Origin: an uncultured Candidatus Saccharibacteria bacterium
GTDB lineage: Bacteria; Patescibacteriota; Minisyncoccia; Phycocordibacterales; Zambryskibacteraceae
Assembly: GCA_964364225.1 (NCBI GenBank)
Contig: CAYIKP010000005.1
Coordinates: 1-46,985, forward strand
Reading direction: 5' to 3'
DNA: 46,985 nucleotides
Part shown: one piece after another, positions 1-40,905 of the stretch
Position numbering within the stretch: position 1 is the first letter of the stretch
Layout of the letters: each line of letters opens with the position of its first letter
Program-made: the position numbers and the translations under genes
The notes under the pieces: generated by a model
Told to the model about the DNA's origin: nothing
Seen by the model: the letters and a program-made list of their open reading frames with translations, nothing else
The model's database searches: none

Positions 1-993
1 CGGCCAAAAGTTTCTAAAAATTCTTCCGGATATTACTTATGGAATGTAAATCAAAATGGAATATTTGATTTAAATAAATTGATAGTTGGCTCTCAGGGCA
101 CACTCGGAATTGTTACAGAGGCGGAGATTGGTCTTGTAAGACCGGCAAAAAAATCAAAAATGTTGGTGATTTTTTTGAAACATCTAGATAATTTGGGGGA
201 GATAGTAAATGAAATATTAAAAGGGGACCCTGAAACCCTAGAGTCTTATGATGATTCCACATTAAAATTTGCAATAAAATTTTTACCAGATTTGGCCAAG
301 GCAATGAAAGCTAAGAGTTTCTTGAAAATGATATTTTCATTTATTCCAGAGGCATTGATGTCTGTAAAAGGGGGTTTCCCAAAATTAGTTTTACTAGTTG
401 AATTTACTGGAGACAGCGATGAGGAATTAGAAAAATCTGCTGAAAAAGTTCGTGAATCATTAAAAAAATTTCACACCTCAACCAGAATTACGAAATCAGA
501 ACTCGAGGAAGAAAAATATTTAACTATTCGTAGAGAAAGTTTTAATCTTCTTCGTAAACATGTAAGGAACAAGAGAACGGCCCCTTTCATTGATGACATT
601 ATTGTTCGTCCTGAATTTTTACCAGAGTTTTTACCAAGACTCCGAACCATTTTAGATAAATATAAACTTTTCTATACCATAGCCGGACATGCCGGAAATG
701 GAAATTTTCACATAATTCCTTTAATGAATTTTAAAGAAAAAAAGAATAAAGAATTGATACTGCCTGTATCTAAAGAGGTTTATTCTTTGGTACACGAATA
801 CCAAGGATCGATTACAGCTGAACATAATGATGGAATAATTCGTACACCATTTCTGGAACAAATGTATGGAACAGAAGTCGTGGGACTCTTTAAAAAGACC
901 AAAGAGATTTTTGATCCACAAAACATCTTTAACCCAGGTAAAAAAGTTGGTGGATCATTTGATTATATAGAGAGTCATATAACTTCTGAGTAG
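1..993 (+). CDS. FAD-linked oxidase (GlcD/D-lactate dehydrogenase-like), 5'-truncated by the window edge
   Basis: Frame is open from base 1 (RPKVSKNSSGYYLW...DLNKLIVGSQGTLG); C-terminal motifs GHAGNGNFH, SITAEHNDG, KEIFDPQNIFNPGK. Confidence 0.88.
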   Translation, partial: RPKVSKNSSGYYLWNVNQNGIFDLNKLIVGSQGTLGIVTEAEIGLVRPAKKSKMLVIFLKHLDNLGEIVNEILKGDPETLESYDDSTLKFAIKFLPDLAKAMKAKSFLKMIFSFIPEALMSVKGGFPKLVLLVEFTGDSDEELEKSAEKVRESLKKFHTSTRITKSELEEEKYLTIRRESFNLLRKHVRNKRTAPFIDDIIVRPEFLPEFLPRLRTILDKYKLFYTIAGHAGNGNFHIIPLMNFKEKKNKELILPVSKEVYSLVHEYQGSITAEHNDGIIRTPFLEQMYGTEVVGLFKKTKEIFDPQNIFNPGKKVGGSFDYIESHITSE

Positions 994-1068
994 AGGTCGC
1001 GAAGGTGCCTATTTAAAAAGCGAGCGACAAAAGGTCACCAATGCTTTTCAAATAGGCACCTTTGCCCT
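994..1068. repeat. Long hairpin with conserved 27-nt core AGCGAGCGACRAAAGGTCACCAATGCT (copy 1)
   Basis: Arms gcgaaggtgcctattt / aaataggcacctttgc; core 1019-1045 is 26/27 identical to 5103-5129. Confidence 0.85.
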
Positions 1069-1126
1069 AAGTACACTTGGAACATCATGTTGCGTTTTTT
1101 CGGATTTTTAATATAATCTTCCCACT

Positions 1127-1780
1127 ATGTTGAGCTTATCCGTAAAGGAAAGAAAAACAGGAGAAAATGTTGATTCCTTGAGAAAGGAGGGACTTTTACC
1201 TGCTGTTTTCTATGGTAAAAAAACAGAATCTACACCTGTAACTGTTTCGTTAATTGATTTTAAAAAGGTTTTCAAAGAGGCGGGAGAATCTACTATTGTT
1301 ACTTTAAAAACAGAAACAGAGGAAGTTCCAACCCTTATTCATGAGGTGTCTTTTGATCCAGTTTCAGGAATTCCAGTACACGTAGATTTCTATGTTTTCG
1401 ATAAGACAAAGAAAATGGAAATTGATGTCCCTGTTGAGTTTGAGGGCGTTGCTCCAGCATTAAAAGCCGGACTACTTGTCGTTAAGGTTATGCATGAAAT
1501 AAAAGTTGAGGCTCTTCCTAATGCAATCCCACAGGTAATAATTGTTGATATTTCGAAACTTGAAAAGGATGGGGATGTTGTTTCCGTGAAAGATCTTCCT
1601 GAAATTCCTGGAGTAAGGTTTATTGATAACGAAGATGAGACCATTGCATCAGTGCAGACTCCTAAGGAAGAAAAAGAAGAGGTTCCAGTTGATTTAAATG
1701 CTATTGAAGTAGAAAAGAAAGGAAAAGAAGTAGAGGGTGGTGAGGGAGAAGCTCCAGCTGAAGAAGCTAAAGCAGAATAA
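1127..1780 (+). CDS. rplY: 50S ribosomal protein L25 (Ctc/TL5 long form)
   Basis: LRKEGLLPAVFYG, HVDFY, VPVEFEG motifs; acidic tail; TATAAT 9 nt before ATG. Confidence 0.95.
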   Translation: MLSLSVKERKTGENVDSLRKEGLLPAVFYGKKTESTPVTVSLIDFKKVFKEAGESTIVTLKTETEEVPTLIHEVSFDPVSGIPVHVDFYVFDKTKKMEIDVPVEFEGVAPALKAGLLVVKVMHEIKVEALPNAIPQVIIVDISKLEKDGDVVSVKDLPEIPGVRFIDNEDETIASVQTPKEEKEEVPVDLNAIEVEKKGKEVEGGEGEAPAEEAKAE

Positions 1781-1812
1781 CAAAATGTCCCGGGAAATCG
1801 GGACATTTTGTT
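1779..1812. terminator. Inverted repeat / probable intrinsic terminator after rplY
   Basis: aacaaaatgtcccg-ggaaat-cgggacattttgtt. Confidence 0.7.
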
Positions 1813-1826
1813 ATAATGAAATACTA

Positions 1827-3248
1827 ATGGTTTTAAAAAAATCAGTTATTTTATTTTTTCTTTTTTCTTGTCTTTTAGGTGGGTTATTTACCTTTTCTAA
1901 ATTAAATGCTCAAGAGCTTACTTCCCAACAAAGAGCGCAACTGGAAGCAGAGCTTGCTCAAACACAGAAAGAAATAGAAGAGCAGGAAAAGATAATTGCT
2001 GATTTGAAGCAAAAACAAAAGACTATAGGTGGCGACATCACTATTCTTACTGCACAAATAAAACAAGCAGAAGCAGTATTGAAGCAAAAAAATAGCGCCA
2101 TTAAAAAACTTTCTACCGAAATAAGCGCAAAAACTCAACGCATTAATTCTTTGTCGGCTAGAATTGATCGCGGAAAAATATCTTTAGCTGAACTTATAAG
2201 AAGAACTAATGAAATAGACACATATAGCCTGCCTGAAGCGGTGCTTTCAAACGATAATTTTTCAGAATTTTTTGGAGATTTAGATTCTTTCAATTCCATA
2301 CAAAGGAATCTTCAAGATCTGTTTTTTGCTATTCGTGAGGCCAAGACAGAGACAGAAAAAGAGAAAAAGACTCTAAATGAAAAGAAAAACCAAGAAGAGG
2401 ATGCAAAATATATTATTGAACAAAAAAGAAAGGAGGTTGCCAGAAATGAAGCTGAAAAGAAACAACTTTTAGCTGTTGTTAATAAGACAAAGGCTGTTCA
2501 GGATACCATTCTTGCTCAAAAACAATCTCGTGCAGAACAAATCAGAGTTGCTTTATTCGGATTGCGCGATGCAGAGGCTATACCTTTCGCAACAGCCCTT
2601 GAATATGCTGAGACCGCTTCGCGTGCGACTGGCGTACGCCCCGCCTTAATACTTGCAATTCTTACCCAAGAAACTAATTTAGGTAAAAATATAGGATCTT
2701 GTTATGTAAAAAATTTACAAACTGGAGAGGGGGCTGGTAAAAATACCGGTAGAATTTTTGAGCAAGTGATGTACAGCAGGACAGACAATCCAAACAGACC
2801 AAATGACACAATACCTTTCGAAGCTATTACTAGTCGATTAGGAAAATCATGGTCAATTACTCCAGTCTCATGCCCAATAGATCCATATGGGGATGGTAAA
2901 TATTATGTAGGAAGAGGTTTTGGTGGAGGTATGGGGCCATCTCAATTTATCCCGTCAACGTGGGAATCTTTCAAAAAAAGAATTGCAAAAGTTTTTGGTG
3001 TTGATGCAGATCAAGCCAATCCATGGAACGCACAACATGCAATTACCGCTACTGCAATTTACCTTGCAGATCTGGGTGCTTCTACTGGTACATATACAAA
3101 TGAAAGAACTGCTGCTTGTAAATATTATTCCGGAAGAACTTGTTATAGCAGTAGTGGGGGAGCTAATGCGGGCCTCACCTATGGTAATGAAGTTCTAAAA
3201 AAAGCAGAAGTTATTCAAGTGAATATAGATTTCTTGAAATCCGTTTAA
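1827..3248 (+). CDS. Secreted coiled-coil protein with C-terminal lytic murein transglycosylase-like domain
   Basis: Signal peptide from ATG 1827 (TATAAT 9 nt upstream), long heptad region, ALILAILTQET catalytic-Glu motif, GGMGPSQFIPSTW, ANPWN. Confidence 0.8.
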   Translation: MVLKKSVILFFLFSCLLGGLFTFSKLNAQELTSQQRAQLEAELAQTQKEIEEQEKIIADLKQKQKTIGGDITILTAQIKQAEAVLKQKNSAIKKLSTEISAKTQRINSLSARIDRGKISLAELIRRTNEIDTYSLPEAVLSNDNFSEFFGDLDSFNSIQRNLQDLFFAIREAKTETEKEKKTLNEKKNQEEDAKYIIEQKRKEVARNEAEKKQLLAVVNKTKAVQDTILAQKQSRAEQIRVALFGLRDAEAIPFATALEYAETASRATGVRPALILAILTQETNLGKNIGSCYVKNLQTGEGAGKNTGRIFEQVMYSRTDNPNRPNDTIPFEAITSRLGKSWSITPVSCPIDPYGDGKYYVGRGFGGGMGPSQFIPSTWESFKKRIAKVFGVDADQANPWNAQHAITATAIYLADLGASTGTYTNERTAACKYYSGRTCYSSSGGANAGLTYGNEVLKKAEVIQVNIDFLKSV

Positions 3249-3251
3249 TAA

Positions 3252-3282
3252 TCGCGAGGGGATTTAATTTAAAAGCGAGCGA
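3252..3282. repeat. Truncated left half of the AGCGAGCG hairpin family
   Basis: tcgcgaggggatttaatttaaaagcgagcga resembles 997-1027 tcgcgaaggtgcctatttaaaaagcgagcga. Confidence 0.55.
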
Positions 3283-3322
3283 GGTTGCAAGCACCATTAA
3301 AAGGGAGCCTTTTTAATGGTGC

Positions 3323-3350
3323 TTGACAAAAAGACTGAAGTGTGTATAAT
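3323..3350 (+). promoter_or_regulatory. Consensus sigma70 promoter driving the GC-rich RNA
   Basis: TTGACA (3323-3328), 16-nt spacer, TATAAT (3345-3350); the -35 box overlaps the end of the preceding inverted repeat caagcaccattaaaa/ttttaatggtgcttg. Confidence 0.85.
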
Positions 3351-3355
3351 GGAGC

Positions 3356-3734
3356 TGTACACTACCAGTTCGGGACCCCCAATCTTTGAATCACACCATC
3401 TGGGGTGAGTAGGGTACACACCGGCATGACCTGGTGAACAGGCTGTGTTGCCGAGTGGGTAGCCGAACGCGCTGTGGCACCCGCTCTGGTCCGCCGTACG
3501 ACCTGCGCGTGGTCTCAGTGACGAAAGTCGCTGCTGTATCGGCGGAATATGCCGCGTCGCCCGACGACGTGCGCTCGAGGCCGAAGAGCCTCGGTTCGAG
3601 TCCTGTGGACGCGGGCTTGGTACCAGCGTTCACGAACAAGTTCCTTTTTCCTCGAGAGCAGAGGATAAATGCATCGGTATCGGTGTCCGTGCCGATACGA
3701 CAGGGTCCAGGCGAAATGTCTGGGCCCTTTTCTT
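3356..3734 (+). ncRNA. Unidentified large structured non-coding RNA (~380 nt)
   Basis: Markedly GC-rich island between a consensus promoter and a terminator; many nested helices, a GAAA tetraloop, two possible loop-loop pairings; no convincing protein ORF. Confidence 0.75.
3702..3734 (+). terminator. Intrinsic terminator ending the ncRNA
   Basis: agggtccaggc-gaaat-gtctgggccct followed by tttctt. Confidence 0.85.
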
Positions 3735-3777
3735 ATATTCTTGCGATATTTGAAACTTTTGGTATATTAAGCGAGCA

Positions 3778-4074
3778 ATGAAAAAAGGAATCCATCCAGA
3801 AAACTATAGAAAAGTCTTATTCCACGACAACTCGTCAAAGGTGGATTTTCTTATTGGTTCAACAATTACTACAAACGAAACTAAGAAACACACAGACGGA
3901 AAAGAATATCCTTTAGTATCTGTTGAAATATCTAGTGCATCACATCCATTTTATACAGGTAATGACAAAGTGATAGACACAGCGGGGCGTGTAGAAAGAT
4001 TTAAAACAAAACAAGCGGCAGCCATCGGCCGTAGACCTACAGGCGAGGCAAAAAAGACGACCAAGAAGGCTTAG
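3778..4074 (+). CDS. rpmE: 50S ribosomal protein L31 type B (Cys-free)
   Basis: [38 protein letters not shown]; no CxxC. Confidence 0.95.
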
Positions 4075-4092
4075 ATAGCTGGTTGTTTAAAA

Positions 4093-5073
4093 ATGACCCA
4101 TACAGATCTTTTGCGATATAAAGAAAATCCAAAAACTGCTTACCAGGCATCGCAGTTATCCGATTTACTTAAAAAAGAAGAGGAGGCGATAGAACTTTCA
4201 AAAGACCCTGCATTTAAAGATCTTGCAGACGAAGATTTGAAAAATATTCAAGAACAGATTGCTGAACTTCAAAAGCATCTAGATGAAATATTAAAAGAGG
4301 AGGAAGCAGAAGATGAATTTCCCAATGAAATAATTTTAGAAGTGCGTGCAGGAACAGGTGGCGAGGAAGCAGCACTTTTTGCTGAAGTGCTTTCCACTAT
4401 GTATTCAAAGTTTGCTGAAAAAAATAATTGGAGTGTTAAAGAAATTGATATTTCTAAGTCGCCACTAGGAGGATTTAAAGACGCTGCTTTTGAAATAAGA
4501 GGTAAGGATGTTTATAAAATTCTTCGTTTTGAAACTGGAGTACATAGAGTGCAGAGAGTGCCTAGCACAGAGAAATCTGGAAGGGTGCACACATCAACTG
4601 CATCTGTTGTTATTTTGCCAGTGCGTAAACATACAAAAATTGATATTAATCCTGCAGATTTAGAAATGGAGTTTTCTCGGTCTGGGGGGGCTGGAGGACA
4701 AAATGTTAACAAAGTCGAGACTGCCGTTCGTATAACCCACAAGCCAACAGGTATTACAGTGCGCTCGACGGCACAGCGTTCTCAAAGTGCAAACAGAGAA
4801 AAGGCTATGGAAATTTTAGTCGCTAAAATTGAAGAAGAAGCACGCTTGAAAGCAGAATCTAAATTGTCGGTAGATAGAAAGGGACAAATTGGAACGGGCG
4901 ACAGATCGGAAAAAATTCGTACCTATAACTACTTACAAGACAGGATCACGGACCACCGCATAAAGGAGAACTGGCACAATATAGATGAAATTCTAGCGGG
5001 AAATATAGAAGATATTGCAAATGAATTAGAAGTTAGAGAAAAAGCGGGTACTTTGGGTGAGGGTGAGGAGTAA
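4093..5073 (+). CDS. prfA: Peptide chain release factor 1
   Basis: GGQ motif ([11 protein letters not shown]), PxT specificity motif ([16 protein letters not shown]), RSEKIRTYN. Confidence 0.95.
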
Positions 5074-5081
5074 AAGATTCA

Positions 5082-5150
5082 GGCCAAAGTATTTCATTGA
5101 TGAGCGAGCGACGAAAGGTCACCAATGCTCCTCAATGAAATACTTTGGCC
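5082..5150. repeat. Long hairpin with the conserved 27-nt core (copy 2)
   Basis: Perfect 19-bp arms ggccaaagtatttcattga / tcaatgaaatactttggcc around agcgagcgacgaaaggtcaccaatgct. Confidence 0.85.
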
Positions 5151-5222
5151 ATAATATATGGATGTTGTTGCGGGCAAACCCTCCCTTTGATACTATACGG
5201 CTTACCCCATTGGGGATTTTTT

Positions 5223-5933
5223 ATGACAGGAACTAATACAAAAACAGTAGACATTGATCACCTTTCAAAAGCGGGGGTGCATTTTGGCCGTTCTCGCTCC
5301 AAGAGGCACCCTTCTTCGAAGGATTTTATTTTTGGCCATAAGGGAAGTGTAGAGATTTTTGATTTGGAAACCACTAAAACTCTTTTAGAAAGAGCTATGC
5401 AGATTGCTCACGAGATAGGGGAAAAAGGGGGACAGATTCTTGTGGTGGGAGGAAAGTCAGAAGCAAAAGGCGCAGTAAAGGACACAGCTTCTTCGGCGGG
5501 ACTTCCATATGTTGCGGGAAGATTTATTGGGGGCACCCTTACAAATTTTGTAGAAATAAAGAAGAGAATTAACCGTTTAGAGAGTTTGTCTGAACAAAAA
5601 GAAAAAGGTGAACTTGCTAAATATACAAAAAAGGAACGCCTTTTAATTGACAGAGAAATTGATTCTTTAAGAGAAATGTTTGGAGGTATTTCTTCAATGA
5701 AATCTTTACCAAACCTAGTTTTTGTAGTAGATCCTAGAAAAGAGAATATTGCTGTACGCGAGGCAAATAATTTAGGAATTCCTGTAATGGCCCTAGCTTC
5801 CTCTGATTGTAATATGAAGGAACTTGCGTATCCCATTCCGGGCAACGATGCGACTGATGCAAGTATTAGGTTTATAACAGACAAGATAACCAATGCTTAC
5901 AAAGAAGGTAGAAAGGTAACAGTAAAGGCATAA
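5223..5933 (+). CDS. rpsB: 30S ribosomal protein S2
   Basis: AGVHFGR, RFIGGTLTNF, IPGNDA; start moved to ATG 5223, downstream of a TTGCGG...TACTAT promoter. Confidence 0.95.
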   Translation: MTGTNTKTVDIDHLSKAGVHFGRSRSKRHPSSKDFIFGHKGSVEIFDLETTKTLLERAMQIAHEIGEKGGQILVVGGKSEAKGAVKDTASSAGLPYVAGRFIGGTLTNFVEIKKRINRLESLSEQKEKGELAKYTKKERLLIDREIDSLREMFGGISSMKSLPNLVFVVDPRKENIAVREANNLGIPVMALASSDCNMKELAYPIPGNDATDASIRFITDKITNAYKEGRKVTVKA

Positions 5934-5965
5934 ATTTTAAAAGAGTTCGGTATAATTAGCACATT

Positions 5966-6550
5966 ATGATTTCAACTGAACAGGTAAAAGAATTAAGAGA
6001 GAAGACTGGTGTCTCAATAATGCAATGCAGAAAAGCATTGGAAGAAGCAGGCGGCGATATAGAAAAGGCGCTTATCCTTTTAAAAAAGAAAGGCGCAGAT
6101 GTTGCTTCTAAAAAAAGTGATAGAACCCTTGGAGCAGGAGCAATACAGTCCTATATTCACGCCAACGGAACAGTGGGAGCAATAGTTGAACTCTCATCGG
6201 AAACAGACTTTGTTGCAAAAAATGAAGAATTTAAAAAAGCCGCTTATGACATTGCGATGCAAGTAGCTGCTACAAATCCCGAGTTTCTTTCAATGGATGA
6301 TATTGGGGAACAAGACAAAGAGAAGGCTAGTGAGGCATTTACACCAGAGCTAGAAGGTAAGCCCGAAGACATGAAGGCAAAGATTATGGAAGGAAAACTT
6401 AAGAGCTACTTTAGTGAAAGAGTTTTGCTTGAGCAGTCTTTCATAAAAAATCAAGAAATTACCATAAGGGATTTGGTGAACTCACTAATACAGAAATTTG
6501 GTGAGAAAGTTGAAATCAGAAGATTTGTGAGATTCTCAACTGGAGACTAA
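5966..6550 (+). CDS. tsf: Elongation factor Ts (short form)
   Basis: VKELREKTGVSIMQCRKAL, ETDFVAKN; follows rpsB. Confidence 0.96.
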   Translation: MISTEQVKELREKTGVSIMQCRKALEEAGGDIEKALILLKKKGADVASKKSDRTLGAGAIQSYIHANGTVGAIVELSSETDFVAKNEEFKKAAYDIAMQVAATNPEFLSMDDIGEQDKEKASEAFTPELEGKPEDMKAKIMEGKLKSYFSERVLLEQSFIKNQEITIRDLVNSLIQKFGEKVEIRRFVRFSTGD

Positions 6551-6551
6551 C

Positions 6552-6944
6552 ATGATCACTTACATTTTTTACGGATCACTAATAGGCATGATTGGTATGC
6601 TTGCTGTAAAAATGTATGAAGTTAAAAGAAGACGCCGTAGCCTTGTTTATCATCTTTTTGTTCAGTTTGATGAATTTACACACGGCATATTAGCTAAAGT
6701 TTTGGGCTCAATTCGTTTTAGAAAAGAGAAAGTAGAGATTTTCTTAAAGAATGATCTTCGTGCAATCACTTATCAAACAATAGTTAAAATGATTGCTCAT
6801 GGAAGGGGTGCATATGATAATATTCGGAAGTCTGCCCGCGGAGTTCAGAAATTAAAGGATAATCCCAAGGTTTCAGCATTCCTCCGTGATATTGAAGAGG
6901 CCAAAAAAGAAATTGGCGATAAACAGGGAGAAATAATAGAATAG
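6552..6944 (+). CDS. Hypothetical protein with N-terminal membrane anchor
   Basis: Coupled to tsf; hydrophobic N-terminus followed by a basic stretch. Confidence 0.7.
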   Translation: MITYIFYGSLIGMIGMLAVKMYEVKRRRRSLVYHLFVQFDEFTHGILAKVLGSIRFRKEKVEIFLKNDLRAITYQTIVKMIAHGRGAYDNIRKSARGVQKLKDNPKVSAFLRDIEEAKKEIGDKQGEIIE

Positions 6945-6950
6945 TCAAAC

Positions 6951-7023
6951 GCCACCTTAGCTCAGTTGGTAGAGCAATACTTTTGTAAAGTATAGGTCGT
7001 CGGTTCAAGCCCGACAGGTGGCT
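6951..7023 (+). tRNA. tRNA-Thr (anticodon TGT)
   Basis: Acceptor GCCACCT/AGGTGGC, D-arm GCTCAGTTGGTAGAGC, anticodon loop TTTGTAA, T-loop GGTTCAAGCCC. Confidence 0.95.
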
Positions 7024-7085
7024 CCGAGTGAGGGTCGTGAGAAATAAATTTATCATGACCGAACGAGGACCAACCTGTATGTAAT

Positions 7086-7098
7086 ACAGGTGGCTCCA
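7086..7098 (+). repeat. Direct repeat of the tRNA-Thr 3' end (att-like)
   Basis: acaggtggctcc at 7014-7025 is repeated at 7086-7097 (+A gives CCA); a shorter gtggctc is at 7361-7367. Confidence 0.7.
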
Positions 7099-7106
7099 GT
7101 AATTAA

Positions 7107-7361
7107 ATGACAAAAAAGATAAATAGAATCGATTTTAGCTCAGAAGAAATAAGAACCAAATATATAAAAGAGGTTATTGGTTTTTTTCAAAAGGAAAGAA
7201 ATGAACTAATTGGCATTATAGCGGCTGGAGAGATTTTAGATTTTTTTCTAAATACAGCTGGCAAAGAGGTTTATAAAATGGCAATAGGGGATGCGAAAAA
7301 ATTACTCAAGGAAAGAATGGAGGATTTAGAAATCAATTTAGATATCCTTTCTCCTAAATAG
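7107..7361 (+). CDS. Small protein, DUF2164-like
   Basis: Recalled pattern FFQKERNELIGIIAAGEILDFF...VYKMAIGDA; lies between tRNA 3'-end repeats. Confidence 0.7.
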   Translation: MTKKINRIDFSSEEIRTKYIKEVIGFFQKERNELIGIIAAGEILDFFLNTAGKEVYKMAIGDAKKLLKERMEDLEINLDILSPK

Positions 7362-7400
7362 TGGCTCAAATACCCATATTCTGGTAGTGTTTTATCCTCT

Positions 7401-7532
7401 ATGGATCCCGTTAGAAACCGCGGTCGCAGTTTAGTAGGTAAGCTAGCAGATAGCTTAGAATTTTATGTATAAAACACAACAAAACGACATTATAAAAAGT
7501 GAAAGACCGCGACCTGTTTCTAACGGGATGGA
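7401..7532 (+). mobile_element. Start-codon-inserted hairpin element E1 (127 nt, ATGGA direct repeats)
   Basis: ATGGA-TCCCGTTAGAAACCGCGGTC ... GACCGCG-ACCT-GTTTCTAACGGG-ATGGA; terminal inverted repeats; 23-codon uORF from the first ATG. Confidence 0.75.
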
Positions 7533-9072
7533 TTATAGAAAAACCCCGTATTTTAAAGTTGGCAGGTCATCGGAGCTAGCGGGTTCCGACAGATTTTTGT
7601 ATAAAATTTTTGAAATAGTTCCAGGGTTTTTGTCTTGGGGCACCATTGCTTTTTTATTGATTTGTTCATTTTATAAACCAATAATTGCCGCTTATTTCGT
7701 AATATTATTTGACCTTTACTGGTTACTAAAAACGGTTTATTTATCTAATCACAATTTGTATAACTGGAGAAGAATAAAAAATAGTTTAGCTTTGGATTGG
7801 TCTGAAAAGGTTTCTCATTTAAAGTATGAACACATTAGACATTTAGTCATATTTCCTTTTTACGAGGAATCCTTTGAGGTTGTTTCTGAAAGTGTTGAGA
7901 GCATTAAAAGAGCAAATTATGATCATAAAAAAATATTACTGGTTTTGGCATCCGAAGAGAGGGCTGGTGAGACAGCACAAAAAATTGGACAGGATGTAAT
8001 AAAAAAGTTTGAAAATGATTTTGGTGGTCTTTTGTTGACCACTCACCCTAAGGATTTGGAGGGGGAATTGGCTGGAAAAGGATCAAATATTTCTTTTGCT
8101 GCTGAAGTGGCTCGAAAAGATCTATTAGATAAGAATAATATTCCTTATGAAAATGTAATTGTCTCTGCGTTTGATATGGACACAGTAGTTTATAAAGATT
8201 ATTTTCTTTGCCTAGTTTGGTACTTTTTAACAACAGAAAATCCCGAGAAAGCCTCTTTTCAGCCGGTTCCTATTTACAACAATAATATTTGGCAGACAGA
8301 TCCAATTTCTCGCATTGCTGCTTTTTCGAATACTTTTTGGCAAATGATTCAGCAAGAGCGTCCAGAAAAATTAGTAACTTTTTCTTCGCACGCAGTGAGC
8401 TTCAAAGCGCTACTTAGTGTGAATTATTGGCAAACCAATATGGTGTCTGAAGACTCTAGGATCTTTTGGAATTTGTTTTTTGCAAACAACGGAAACTATC
8501 GCGTTGTTCCAATGGCCTATCCTGTTTCCATGGACGCTAATTTCGGCGGTTCTTTTTTTAAGACAATGAAAAATATTTATAAACAACACAGGAGATGGAT
8601 GTGGGGAGCAGAAAATGTGCCTTATATTCTTTTGGGTTGTGTAAAAAATAAGAACATTTCTTTAAGAAAAAAAATTAGCCTAACGCTAGTTCAATTAGAA
8701 GGATATTGGTCTGCTGCCACAAACCCCCTCATAATTTTCCTTCTAGGATGGCTTCCTATTGTCTTAGGTGGTAAGTTTTTTAAAGAAACCGTGCTTTCAT
8801 ACAACCTTCCTGCGATGACAAGAAACTTGATGATAGGGGCTATGTTGGGGCTTATATCGCTTTCAATAATGTCTTACTCACTTTTACCGAAAGATATAAA
8901 AGGAAAGAAAATTACAAAAAAACAAAAATTTATTGCGGTCTTTCAATGGTTGATATTTCCGTTTACAATAATTATCTTCAGCTCATTACCTGCTCTCGAT
9001 GCCCAAACAAGGCTCATGTTTGGAAAGTATATGGGTTTTTGGGTAACACCAAAATATAGAAAAAATGATTAG
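7528..9072 (+). CDS. Membrane-embedded family 2 glycosyltransferase
   Basis: GKGSN, FDMD (DxD), SEDSRI and KQHRRWMWG (QxxRW-like) motifs, flanking TM helices; start placed at ATG 7528 after E1. Confidence 0.88.
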   Translation: MDYRKTPYFKVGRSSELAGSDRFLYKIFEIVPGFLSWGTIAFLLICSFYKPIIAAYFVILFDLYWLLKTVYLSNHNLYNWRRIKNSLALDWSEKVSHLKYEHIRHLVIFPFYEESFEVVSESVESIKRANYDHKKILLVLASEERAGETAQKIGQDVIKKFENDFGGLLLTTHPKDLEGELAGKGSNISFAAEVARKDLLDKNNIPYENVIVSAFDMDTVVYKDYFLCLVWYFLTTENPEKASFQPVPIYNNNIWQTDPISRIAAFSNTFWQMIQQERPEKLVTFSSHAVSFKALLSVNYWQTNMVSEDSRIFWNLFFANNGNYRVVPMAYPVSMDANFGGSFFKTMKNIYKQHRRWMWGAENVPYILLGCVKNKNISLRKKISLTLVQLEGYWSAATNPLIIFLLGWLPIVLGGKFFKETVLSYNLPAMTRNLMIGAMLGLISLSIMSYSLLPKDIKGKKITKKQKFIAVFQWLIFPFTIIIFSSLPALDAQTRLMFGKYMGFWVTPKYRKND

Positions 9073-40596: not shown

Positions 40597-40785
40597 TCAG
40601 GTTGGTGTTGGTCGTTGACACGCTCGTAAGCCCACAATAAAGCCGGCGAGCATGGCGGTGAAGAGAATTACCGCTGCACCGAGCGGGTCAGCAAGCTCAC
40701 CAGATTCAATCCGGTGAGCCATTGACATTGCACCTCCGAAGGCCAGTACATAGAGTGTCACAAACAACAACGCGAACGCTCGCAT
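40597..40785 (-). CDS. Small two-TM membrane protein (62 aa)
   Basis: TTGACA-17-TATAAT promoter (40848-40820), GAGGT SD, two hydrophobic helices. Confidence 0.65.
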   Translation of the reverse strand: MRAFALLFVTLYVLAFGGAMSMAHRIESGELADPLGAAVILFTAMLAGFIVGLRACQRPTPT

Positions 40786-40905
40786 ATATACCTCGGGTAG
40801 AGGGAACTTACTAACTCTTATTATATACTCATTGTATATGAATGTCAATAGGTTAAAATAACCCTATAAATAAGGGTATTTTGATAGTGTGATAAAATAA
40901 TAGAA

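Follow-up and report, generated by a model that had tools for sequence, protein, structure and literature searches.

The locus raises the question of what, if anything, is encoded in the GC-rich gap directly upstream of the ribosomal protein gene rpmE. The window, that is, the whole stretch of 46,985 nucleotides that was analysed, is contig C5 of a genome (G000) of 553,522 bases in 16 contigs, with a GC content of 38.3% and an estimated completeness of 100%. DNA runs from three studies contain the stretch, and two of these are labelled groundwater. The gene order around the gap is ribosomal protein L25, a 503-aa coiled-coil protein, the RNA unit described below, rpmE (L31), prfA, rpsB, and tsf. 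The coiled-coil protein had a weak Pfam match to the transglycosylase family SLT_2 (E 1.2e-4, below the cut-off). The RNA unit and rpmE are on the same strand.

A preliminary description of this DNA had pointed out a GC-rich stretch, and this was confirmed: in 200-nt segments, GC content peaked at 0.65 at 3401-3600, compared to 0.28-0.45 in those segments of positions 1-8000 that do not reach into it. A scan of gaps identified the unit as the most GC-rich non-coding gap of the genome. The whole RNA has 59.5% GC and its core (3447-3633) 66.3%, while the other stable RNAs of the same genome have 43.9% (tmRNA), 44.9% (RNase P RNA), 50.9% (5S), and an average of 55.4% (38 tRNAs). Searching AT-rich genomes for GC-rich intergenic regions is an established way to find noncoding RNAs (PMC8632094), and it would have picked out this unit.

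The feature is real and, very probably, represents a new family of functional RNA. In full, the reading preferred here is that positions 3357-3737 of the plus strand are probably the gene for a stable, structured noncoding RNA of a new and narrow family, which has its own promoter and terminator and would act in trans. The unit had been claimed to carry its own promoter and terminator, and both were found. The signals and limits of the unit are as follows.

3288..3325, plus strand: hairpin after the transglycosylase-like gene, an inverted repeat with 18-nt arms that are 94% complementary; the 3' arm overlaps the -35 box
3323-3350, plus strand: promoter of the sigma-70 type, TTGACA-16-TATAAT, with 12 of 12 consensus matches
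3357..3737, plus strand: predicted RNA of roughly 375 bases, the start placed about 7 nt past the -10 box and the end at the T tract of the terminator
3702-3728, plus strand: intrinsic terminator with a 12-pair stem (7 G-C) and a T-rich tail, the T tract reaching 3737
3741-3768, plus strand: separate promoter of rpmE, outside the RNA, TTGCGA-16-TATATT with TG (extended -10)

Only ten perfect TTGACA-16-TATAAT sites were found on both strands of the whole 553,522-base genome, compared to fewer than one expected by our own arithmetic, and one of the ten precedes the tmRNA gene. Another, in the window at 40848-40820 on the minus strand, drives a GC-rich small gene (40597-40848) that has a Shine-Dalgarno sequence and an ATG and is followed by a terminator; its product of about 63 aa is hydrophobic and is probably a two-helix membrane protein. 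For comparison with relatives, the genomes are labelled G000 (this genome), G001 to G005 (congeners), and G021 (a different genus). The terminator was present, with changes, in G002, G001, and G004, and a hairpin of other sequence was found at the position matching 3288..3325 in G002, G001, G004, and G021.

The consensus promoter and the terminator indicate that the RNA is not part of the rpmE message. Structured leaders are frequent on ribosomal protein genes, and the position of the RNA immediately before rpmE, in the same orientation, would suit a long leader or attenuator that controls the rpmE-prfA operon in cis and senses, for example, L31. This reading is very unlikely, because the strong terminator is followed, before the start codon, by the separate rpmE promoter at 3741-3768, which is 97.7% identical in G002 and which serves rpmE alone in G005, a genome with no RNA unit. 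In addition, no Rfam leader family matched, and rpmE starts 21-27 nt after the upstream gene in 20 of the 23 loci from other genera described below. The rpmE promoter is conserved across the genus; with 9 nt between the end of its -10 box and the ATG, it would give an rpmE message with little or no leader.

Transcription had been named as a check on the noncoding RNA, and contigs from RNA libraries of two studies do fall on the unit (3407-3654), as assemblies. Three of the four RNA-library runs that were compared gave one contig each, inside the unit. One run from the first study gave a 217-nt contig on 3485-3652 with one differing letter, and the second study contributed two runs, with a 270-nt contig on 3407-3651 and a 328-nt contig on 3407-3654, at 14 differing letters. 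By our own reading, the overhanging ends of the contigs resemble the adjacent parts of the RNA in G000 and G002. These assemblies indicate presence rather than ends, strand, or level, and DNA carry-over into the libraries is possible. None of the four runs had a contig on 3000-3375 or 3658-4400, and the fourth had none at all; such absences carry no weight for or against transcription, and neither do small shares of matching words in three further RNA runs.

The region might instead encode a small protein. It contains ORFs of 115 aa on the plus strand and 82 aa on the minus strand, and another perfect promoter in the window drives the gene for the 63-aa membrane protein mentioned above. Such ORF lengths would be expected by chance in a stop-poor, GC-rich sequence. 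The cores of G000 and G002 differ by indels of 1, 2, 1, and 1 bases, which break the frames, and nothing in G001 was similar to any G000 ORF within the RNA. Pfam gave no match for the two longest ORFs, and no Shine-Dalgarno sequence with a start codon follows the promoter. A small ORF directly after the start was considered separately and rejected, as its frame is shifted by one additional base in an environmental variant and nothing like it is seen in the 5' region of G001. With no ORF conserved between relatives, the claim that the unit is non-coding stands, and a protein-coding gene is extremely improbable.

If the product is an RNA, it could be one of the well-known large RNAs of bacteria, and the absence of any Rfam match had been foreseen. 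Rfam 15 (4227 families) was searched with each family's own threshold on the whole stretch, which returned two tRNAs only, and with E values of up to 10 in 3250-3800, which returned only terminator-like noise. Rfam searches of the homologues and of the units at the same position in G004, G003, and G021 also gave noise only, the best hit being 17.9 bits on terminator hairpins. ARAGORN, including its search for permuted tmRNA, found no tRNA-like or tmRNA gene at the RNA unit. RNase P RNA (RF00010) was rejected as a candidate, since no class A model matched in 3250-3800 even at E values of up to 10, and tmRNA (RF00023) was rejected since neither ARAGORN nor Rfam found one in the stretch. Both genes, rnpB and ssrA, were accounted for on other contigs of the genome, as the preliminary description had recommended checking: the RNase P RNA is at C7:7183-7498 (86.5 bits, E 1.8e-27, full length of the model RF00010) and the tmRNA at C11:4127-4513 (RF00023). 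The RNA in the window resembles these two in its size range (320-390 nt), its own promoter, and its structure, and differs in a GC content 15-20 points higher, as well as in their existence elsewhere in the genome. No match to 6S RNA (RF00013) was found in the stretch or the genome, and the models of ROOL, GOLLD, OLE, and raiA in Rfam 15 had no match in the stretch or the homologues. Word searches of the literature found no paper on such an RNA in the candidate phyla radiation or Patescibacteria; words cannot find a sequence.

The same check for the SRP RNA gene ffs had a different outcome. No SRP RNA (RF00169, RF01854) was found in the stretch or in the genome, or in any of 61 related genomes, so that this gene could not be accounted for elsewhere. 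The unit was therefore suspected to be the SRP RNA, and this candidate was dropped since the proteins Ffh and FtsY are also missing. Ffh (PF02978, TIGR00959) had no match in the genome, which is rated 100% complete, and the models for FtsY (PF00448, TIGR00064) gave only weak P-loop matches. The M domain of Ffh (PF02978) was found in none of 41 related genomes. SecY is present in this apparently SRP-less genome (346 bits). Word searches of the literature found no paper on such a loss of SRP.

The folding of the unit is consistent with a structured product of the plus strand, which folds at -166.4 kcal/mol (z -2.96), with none of 100 shuffles as good. For the minus strand the z-score is -1.35 and 13 of 100 shuffles were as good. 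In the MFE folds, the predicted anatomy of the RNA is a chain of about ten hairpins. The MFE folds of the three species that have the RNA (G000, G002, and G001) have in common modules A and B and hairpins C, D, and E, which vary in length, and the 5' and 3' hairpins are specific to each species. The predicted elements are listed here in 5' to 3' order.

3356..3418, plus strand: 5' hairpin domain, outer helix 3356-3365/3409-3418
3419..3436, plus strand: hairpin CACCGG/CUGGUG, arms 3419-3424/3431-3436, from the MFE fold; a G-U pair becomes A-U in G002
3453..3486, plus strand: module A, an 8-bp stem (3453-3460/3479-3486) with an 18-nt loop (3461-3478)
3490..3546, plus strand: module B, a three-way junction with closing helix 3490-3496/3540-3546 and hairpins 3500-3514 and 3516-3533
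3551..3572, plus strand: hairpin C, in the MFE folds of all three species, ending in the conserved GUGCGC; 18 pairs in G001
3575..3594, plus strand: hairpin D, CGAGGC/GCCUCG, invariant in G000 and G002 and replaced in G001 by a 7-bp hairpin of other sequence
3604..3634, plus strand: hairpin E, MFE pair probability 0.89, containing an 8-nt palindrome (3618-3625)
3635..3701, plus strand: variable 3' region with two hairpins, 58.8% identical to G002

The preliminary description had seen almost the whole unit as helices and had listed them. Comparison with the relatives supported part of that list. Compensatory or wobble changes were found in 3356-3365/3409-3418, 3453-3460/3479-3486, 3576-3581/3588-3593, 3678-3684/3691-3697, and the terminator, and also in the junction closed by 3490-3496/3540-3546 with its two hairpins, which had been proposed as well. 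In the 5' hairpin domain, the A-G mismatch 3361/3413 becomes a G-C pair in G002, where a one-base deletion shifts the register. In the stem of module A, two pairs are changed on both sides in G001, and one variant among the environmental RNA-library contigs has the compensatory changes G3455A and C3484T. The pair probabilities of module B are 0.95-0.99 and both of its hairpins have compensatory changes in G001; its GAAA loop is not conserved, being AAA in G002 and 8 nt long in G001. In the helix 3678-3684/3691-3697, two pairs are changed on both sides between G000 and G002. The proposed helix cggca/tgccg with cctg/cagg did not hold up: in G002 one pair is lost through G3423A and positions 3442-3443 are missing, and the alternative helix 3419-3424/3431-3436 fits. 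The proposed long-range helix gccgcgtc/gacgcgggc is invariant in G000 and G002 and is without a counterpart in G001, where local hairpins fit better. Two further long-range inverted repeats (3531-3543/3691-3703 and 3570-3580/3650-3660) were rejected because they are not kept in G002. A repeat or guide array was also rejected, the sole direct repeat being a 12-nt, two-copy repeat outside the RNA.

In the three-species alignment of the core, 95.2% of 84 cells pair and four of 28 pairs are changed on both sides; 19 of 500 shuffles did as well, and sliding the partners gave 0-2. In the full-length pair of G000 and G002, 95.8% of cells pair and two pairs are changed on both sides, a level that 105 of 500 shuffles also reached. 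Covariation is weak because there are only three genomic sequences, two of them 87% alike, and the alignment results are consistent with the predicted structure, though weakly.

Several loops are conserved along with the stems. The 18-nt loop of module A differs by only 2-3 bases among G000, G002, and G001. Positions 3467-3472 of this loop are perfectly complementary, over 6 nt, to the loop of the first junction hairpin (3505-3510), a complementarity that was reached in 318 of 20,000 shuffles that preserved composition. The palindrome at 3618-3625 is the sole 8-nt palindrome of the RNA, and G001 has a different 6-nt palindrome at the matching place. Both the loop-loop pairing and the palindrome are beyond the covariation test because neither ever varies. 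Pairing between the two loops would lock modules A and B, within or between molecules, and the palindrome could lock the fold or join molecules.

The distribution of the RNA is narrow. BLAST searches of 60 related genomes identified the unit in two congeners: G002, where it is 87% identical over its full length, and G001, where only a 57-nt core matched. At about 515 nt, the G001 unit repeats the arrangement of hairpin, consensus promoter, GC-rich body, terminator, and rpmE promoter. R1, a covariance model built on modules A and B, identified the RNA in three of 86 family genomes, which were again G000, G001, and G002, and gave no hit in 150 other genomes from the order. Within the genus, G003, G004, and G005 lack the RNA, as do all 80 genomes searched from the other genera of the taxonomic family. 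Run without filters on the units of G004 and G003 and on a further unit on contig C7 of G000, R1 scored 6.6 bits at best. The RNA is thus no general feature of reduced genomes or of the candidate phyla radiation; it is confined to three species of one genus, and in relatives its slot is empty or differently filled. The absence from relatives indicates that an important function of the RNA would not be a general one, and the RNA is best described as a new, genus-restricted family.

The slot itself was compared in 29 of 30 rpmE loci (one was too short), 23 of which are from other genera. In 20 of these 23 the upstream gene ends 21-27 nt before rpmE. The remaining loci have a gap of 92 nt (1 of 23), an inserted ORF of 138 aa (1 of 23), and, in G021, a spacer of 538 nt, which contains a long hairpin, a perfect TTGACA-17-TATAAT, a body of roughly 400 nt, and a terminator. 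The G021 unit matched nothing in Rfam and was not significantly similar to the RNA in the window. Within the genus, the slot of G004 contains a unit of roughly 270 nt of the same design, which has only an 11-nt word (the one around hairpin C) and a few words of the 3' end in common with the RNA in the window, in the same order. The slot of G003 is a hairpin-rich spacer and that of G005 is empty, with the rpmE promoter directly behind the upstream gene. Unit lengths at the slot range from about 270 to 515 nt. Because its filling differs among relatives, the slot is a site of gain, remodelling, and loss of RNA units with strong promoters.

A second orphan unit of comparable layout was observed outside the slot, at C7:37694-38244 on the minus strand of G000. 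It has a hairpin overlapping the -35 box, a perfect TTGACA-16-TATAAT, a length of about 550 nt, 56% GC, and a long terminator. Behind it stands another unit with promoter and terminator, about 130 nt in length. The 550-nt unit had no Rfam match and no similarity to the RNA in the window, and was found in two of 61 genomes, including G000; the copy in G002 is 72% identical.

Patchy presence in the genus also allows the unit to be seen as GC-rich foreign or decaying DNA behind a strong promoter, transcribed without a function of its own. Composition is in keeping with this, since the GC content of the core is 66%, compared to 38% in the genome and 44-55% in the tmRNA, RNase P RNA, 5S, and tRNAs, and the genome has other GC-rich islands that look acquired. 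Five of these, 760-800 nt each and 65-70% GC at their richest, are on contigs C1, C2, and C3 (C1:39413-40214, C1:51409-52190, C2:5021-5813, C3:6965-7725, and C3:48140-48905, for example); each has one ORF of 210-295 aa, one of which is ParB-like by eye, and the islands are mutually unrelated except for short similarities in their flanks. In addition, the second unit on C7, at only 72% identity in G002, is close to neutral. Between G000 and G002 the core of the RNA in the window is 96.8% identical (180 of 186 positions), the 5' part is 90% identical, the 3' part (3634-3701) 59%, and the spacer with the hairpin and promoter 66%. In the flanking genes, identity is 92-96% at codon positions 1 and 2 and 60-74% at position 3. 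The core is therefore under stronger constraint than the neighbouring proteins, being more conserved than the positions that determine their amino acids, and its stems stay paired through changes; the comparison showed modules A and B to be the selected part of the RNA.

No donor for such foreign DNA was found in the genome, metagenome, viral, phage, and plasmid collections, where beyond G001 and G002 there were only chance hits. An exact-motif scan of genome contigs gave 65 loci, of which two were true (G001 and G002) and the rest were chance matches in GC-rich coding sequence. The same scan of metagenome contigs gave 69 loci, none of them true, and the listed contexts were GC-rich and coding-like, with none continuing like the RNA. 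Scans of viral contigs gave 16 and 4 loci, none matched by R1, and the phage and plasmid collections had no match to the RNA. Foreign or decaying DNA is accordingly an unlikely explanation.

A further alternative is that the RNA is the 6S- or Ms1-like RNA of this lineage, that is, an abundant, fast-evolving RNA that binds RNA polymerase and can be traced by position only. PMC9130861 describes Ms1 homologues that share no detectable sequence similarity and were located through synteny. The unit is like these RNAs in its very strong promoter, its probable abundance, and its rapid sequence turnover at a slot that is kept in G000, G002, G001, G004, and G021, and the genome lacks any 6S match. It is unlike them in that the predicted folds are chains of hairpins rather than one rod with a central bubble (closure probabilities between the 5' and 3' ends are only 0.3-0.56 in the MFE folds of the three species, as energy predictions), in its different neighbouring genes, the HAD hydrolase gene that neighbours Ms1 (PMC9130861) being absent here, and in its absence from some relatives, the slot being empty in G005 and in 20 of the 23 loci of other genera. 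Its length, which varies from about 270 to 515 nt, also argues against this reading, which is rather improbable.

The consensus promoter, the extreme stability, and the selected core with its invariant loops suggest an abundant RNA that acts in trans, with the loops as its working surface. The uneven distribution of the RNA, and the fact that relatives carry other units in this slot, point to an accessory RNA that evolves fast and not to a missing housekeeping RNA. Being abundant and stable, it would most likely act as a platform that binds a protein or another nucleic acid, or as a decoy for one, with the invariant loops as the contacts. A search of the genome found no complement of the loop of module A with one or fewer mismatches, and no partner protein or gene was found. 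Of the two roles that had been suggested in the preliminary description, nothing was found in favour of a ribozyme, and a role as an RNP scaffold can only be inferred.

The ornate RNAs offer the nearest comparison in general appearance. Like ROOL, GOLLD, OLE, and raiA, the RNA in the window is long, GC-enriched, and multi-hairpin, stands alone, and has no coding capacity and no known partner, and it has conserved complementary or palindromic loops that could join molecules, although here these are features of the sequence only. It is unlike them in having no match to their Rfam models and in being confined to three species. ROOL and GOLLD are also much longer than this RNA. According to PMC12286853, ROOL, GOLLD, and OLE form RNA-only homo-oligomers. 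One might go further and propose that the slot holds a fast-evolving set of RNA genes with top promoters in ultra-small, apparently SRP-less bacteria, and that the RNA, through its complementary loops and palindrome, would form an RNA-only multimer or act as a ribozyme, as a protein-free new ornate class; such a proposal is doubtful. The RNA shows none of the tested defining features of ornate, 6S, or Ms1 RNAs.

For now the RNA is a well-documented candidate and not a discovery, and the support for its structure and expression is suggestive but thin. Its weight is limited by the three species, the lack of a functional clue, and the thin covariation. It may nevertheless be of interest that, of only ten perfect promoters, this 553-kb genome devotes one to a 375-base RNA outside all 4227 curated families. 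If a function were found, this would be a new RNA class from little-studied, uncultivated bacteria, and it would show how fast such RNAs can arise, change, and disappear at a single chromosomal position.

Two unusual tRNA predictions were also made by ARAGORN in this genome. One, at C3:45489-45562 on the minus strand, has the anticodon UUA and would read the stop codon UAA. The other, at C12:1105-1188 beside the 5S gene, has the four-base anticodon CAUU and matched the Rfam tRNA model with 50.3 bits.
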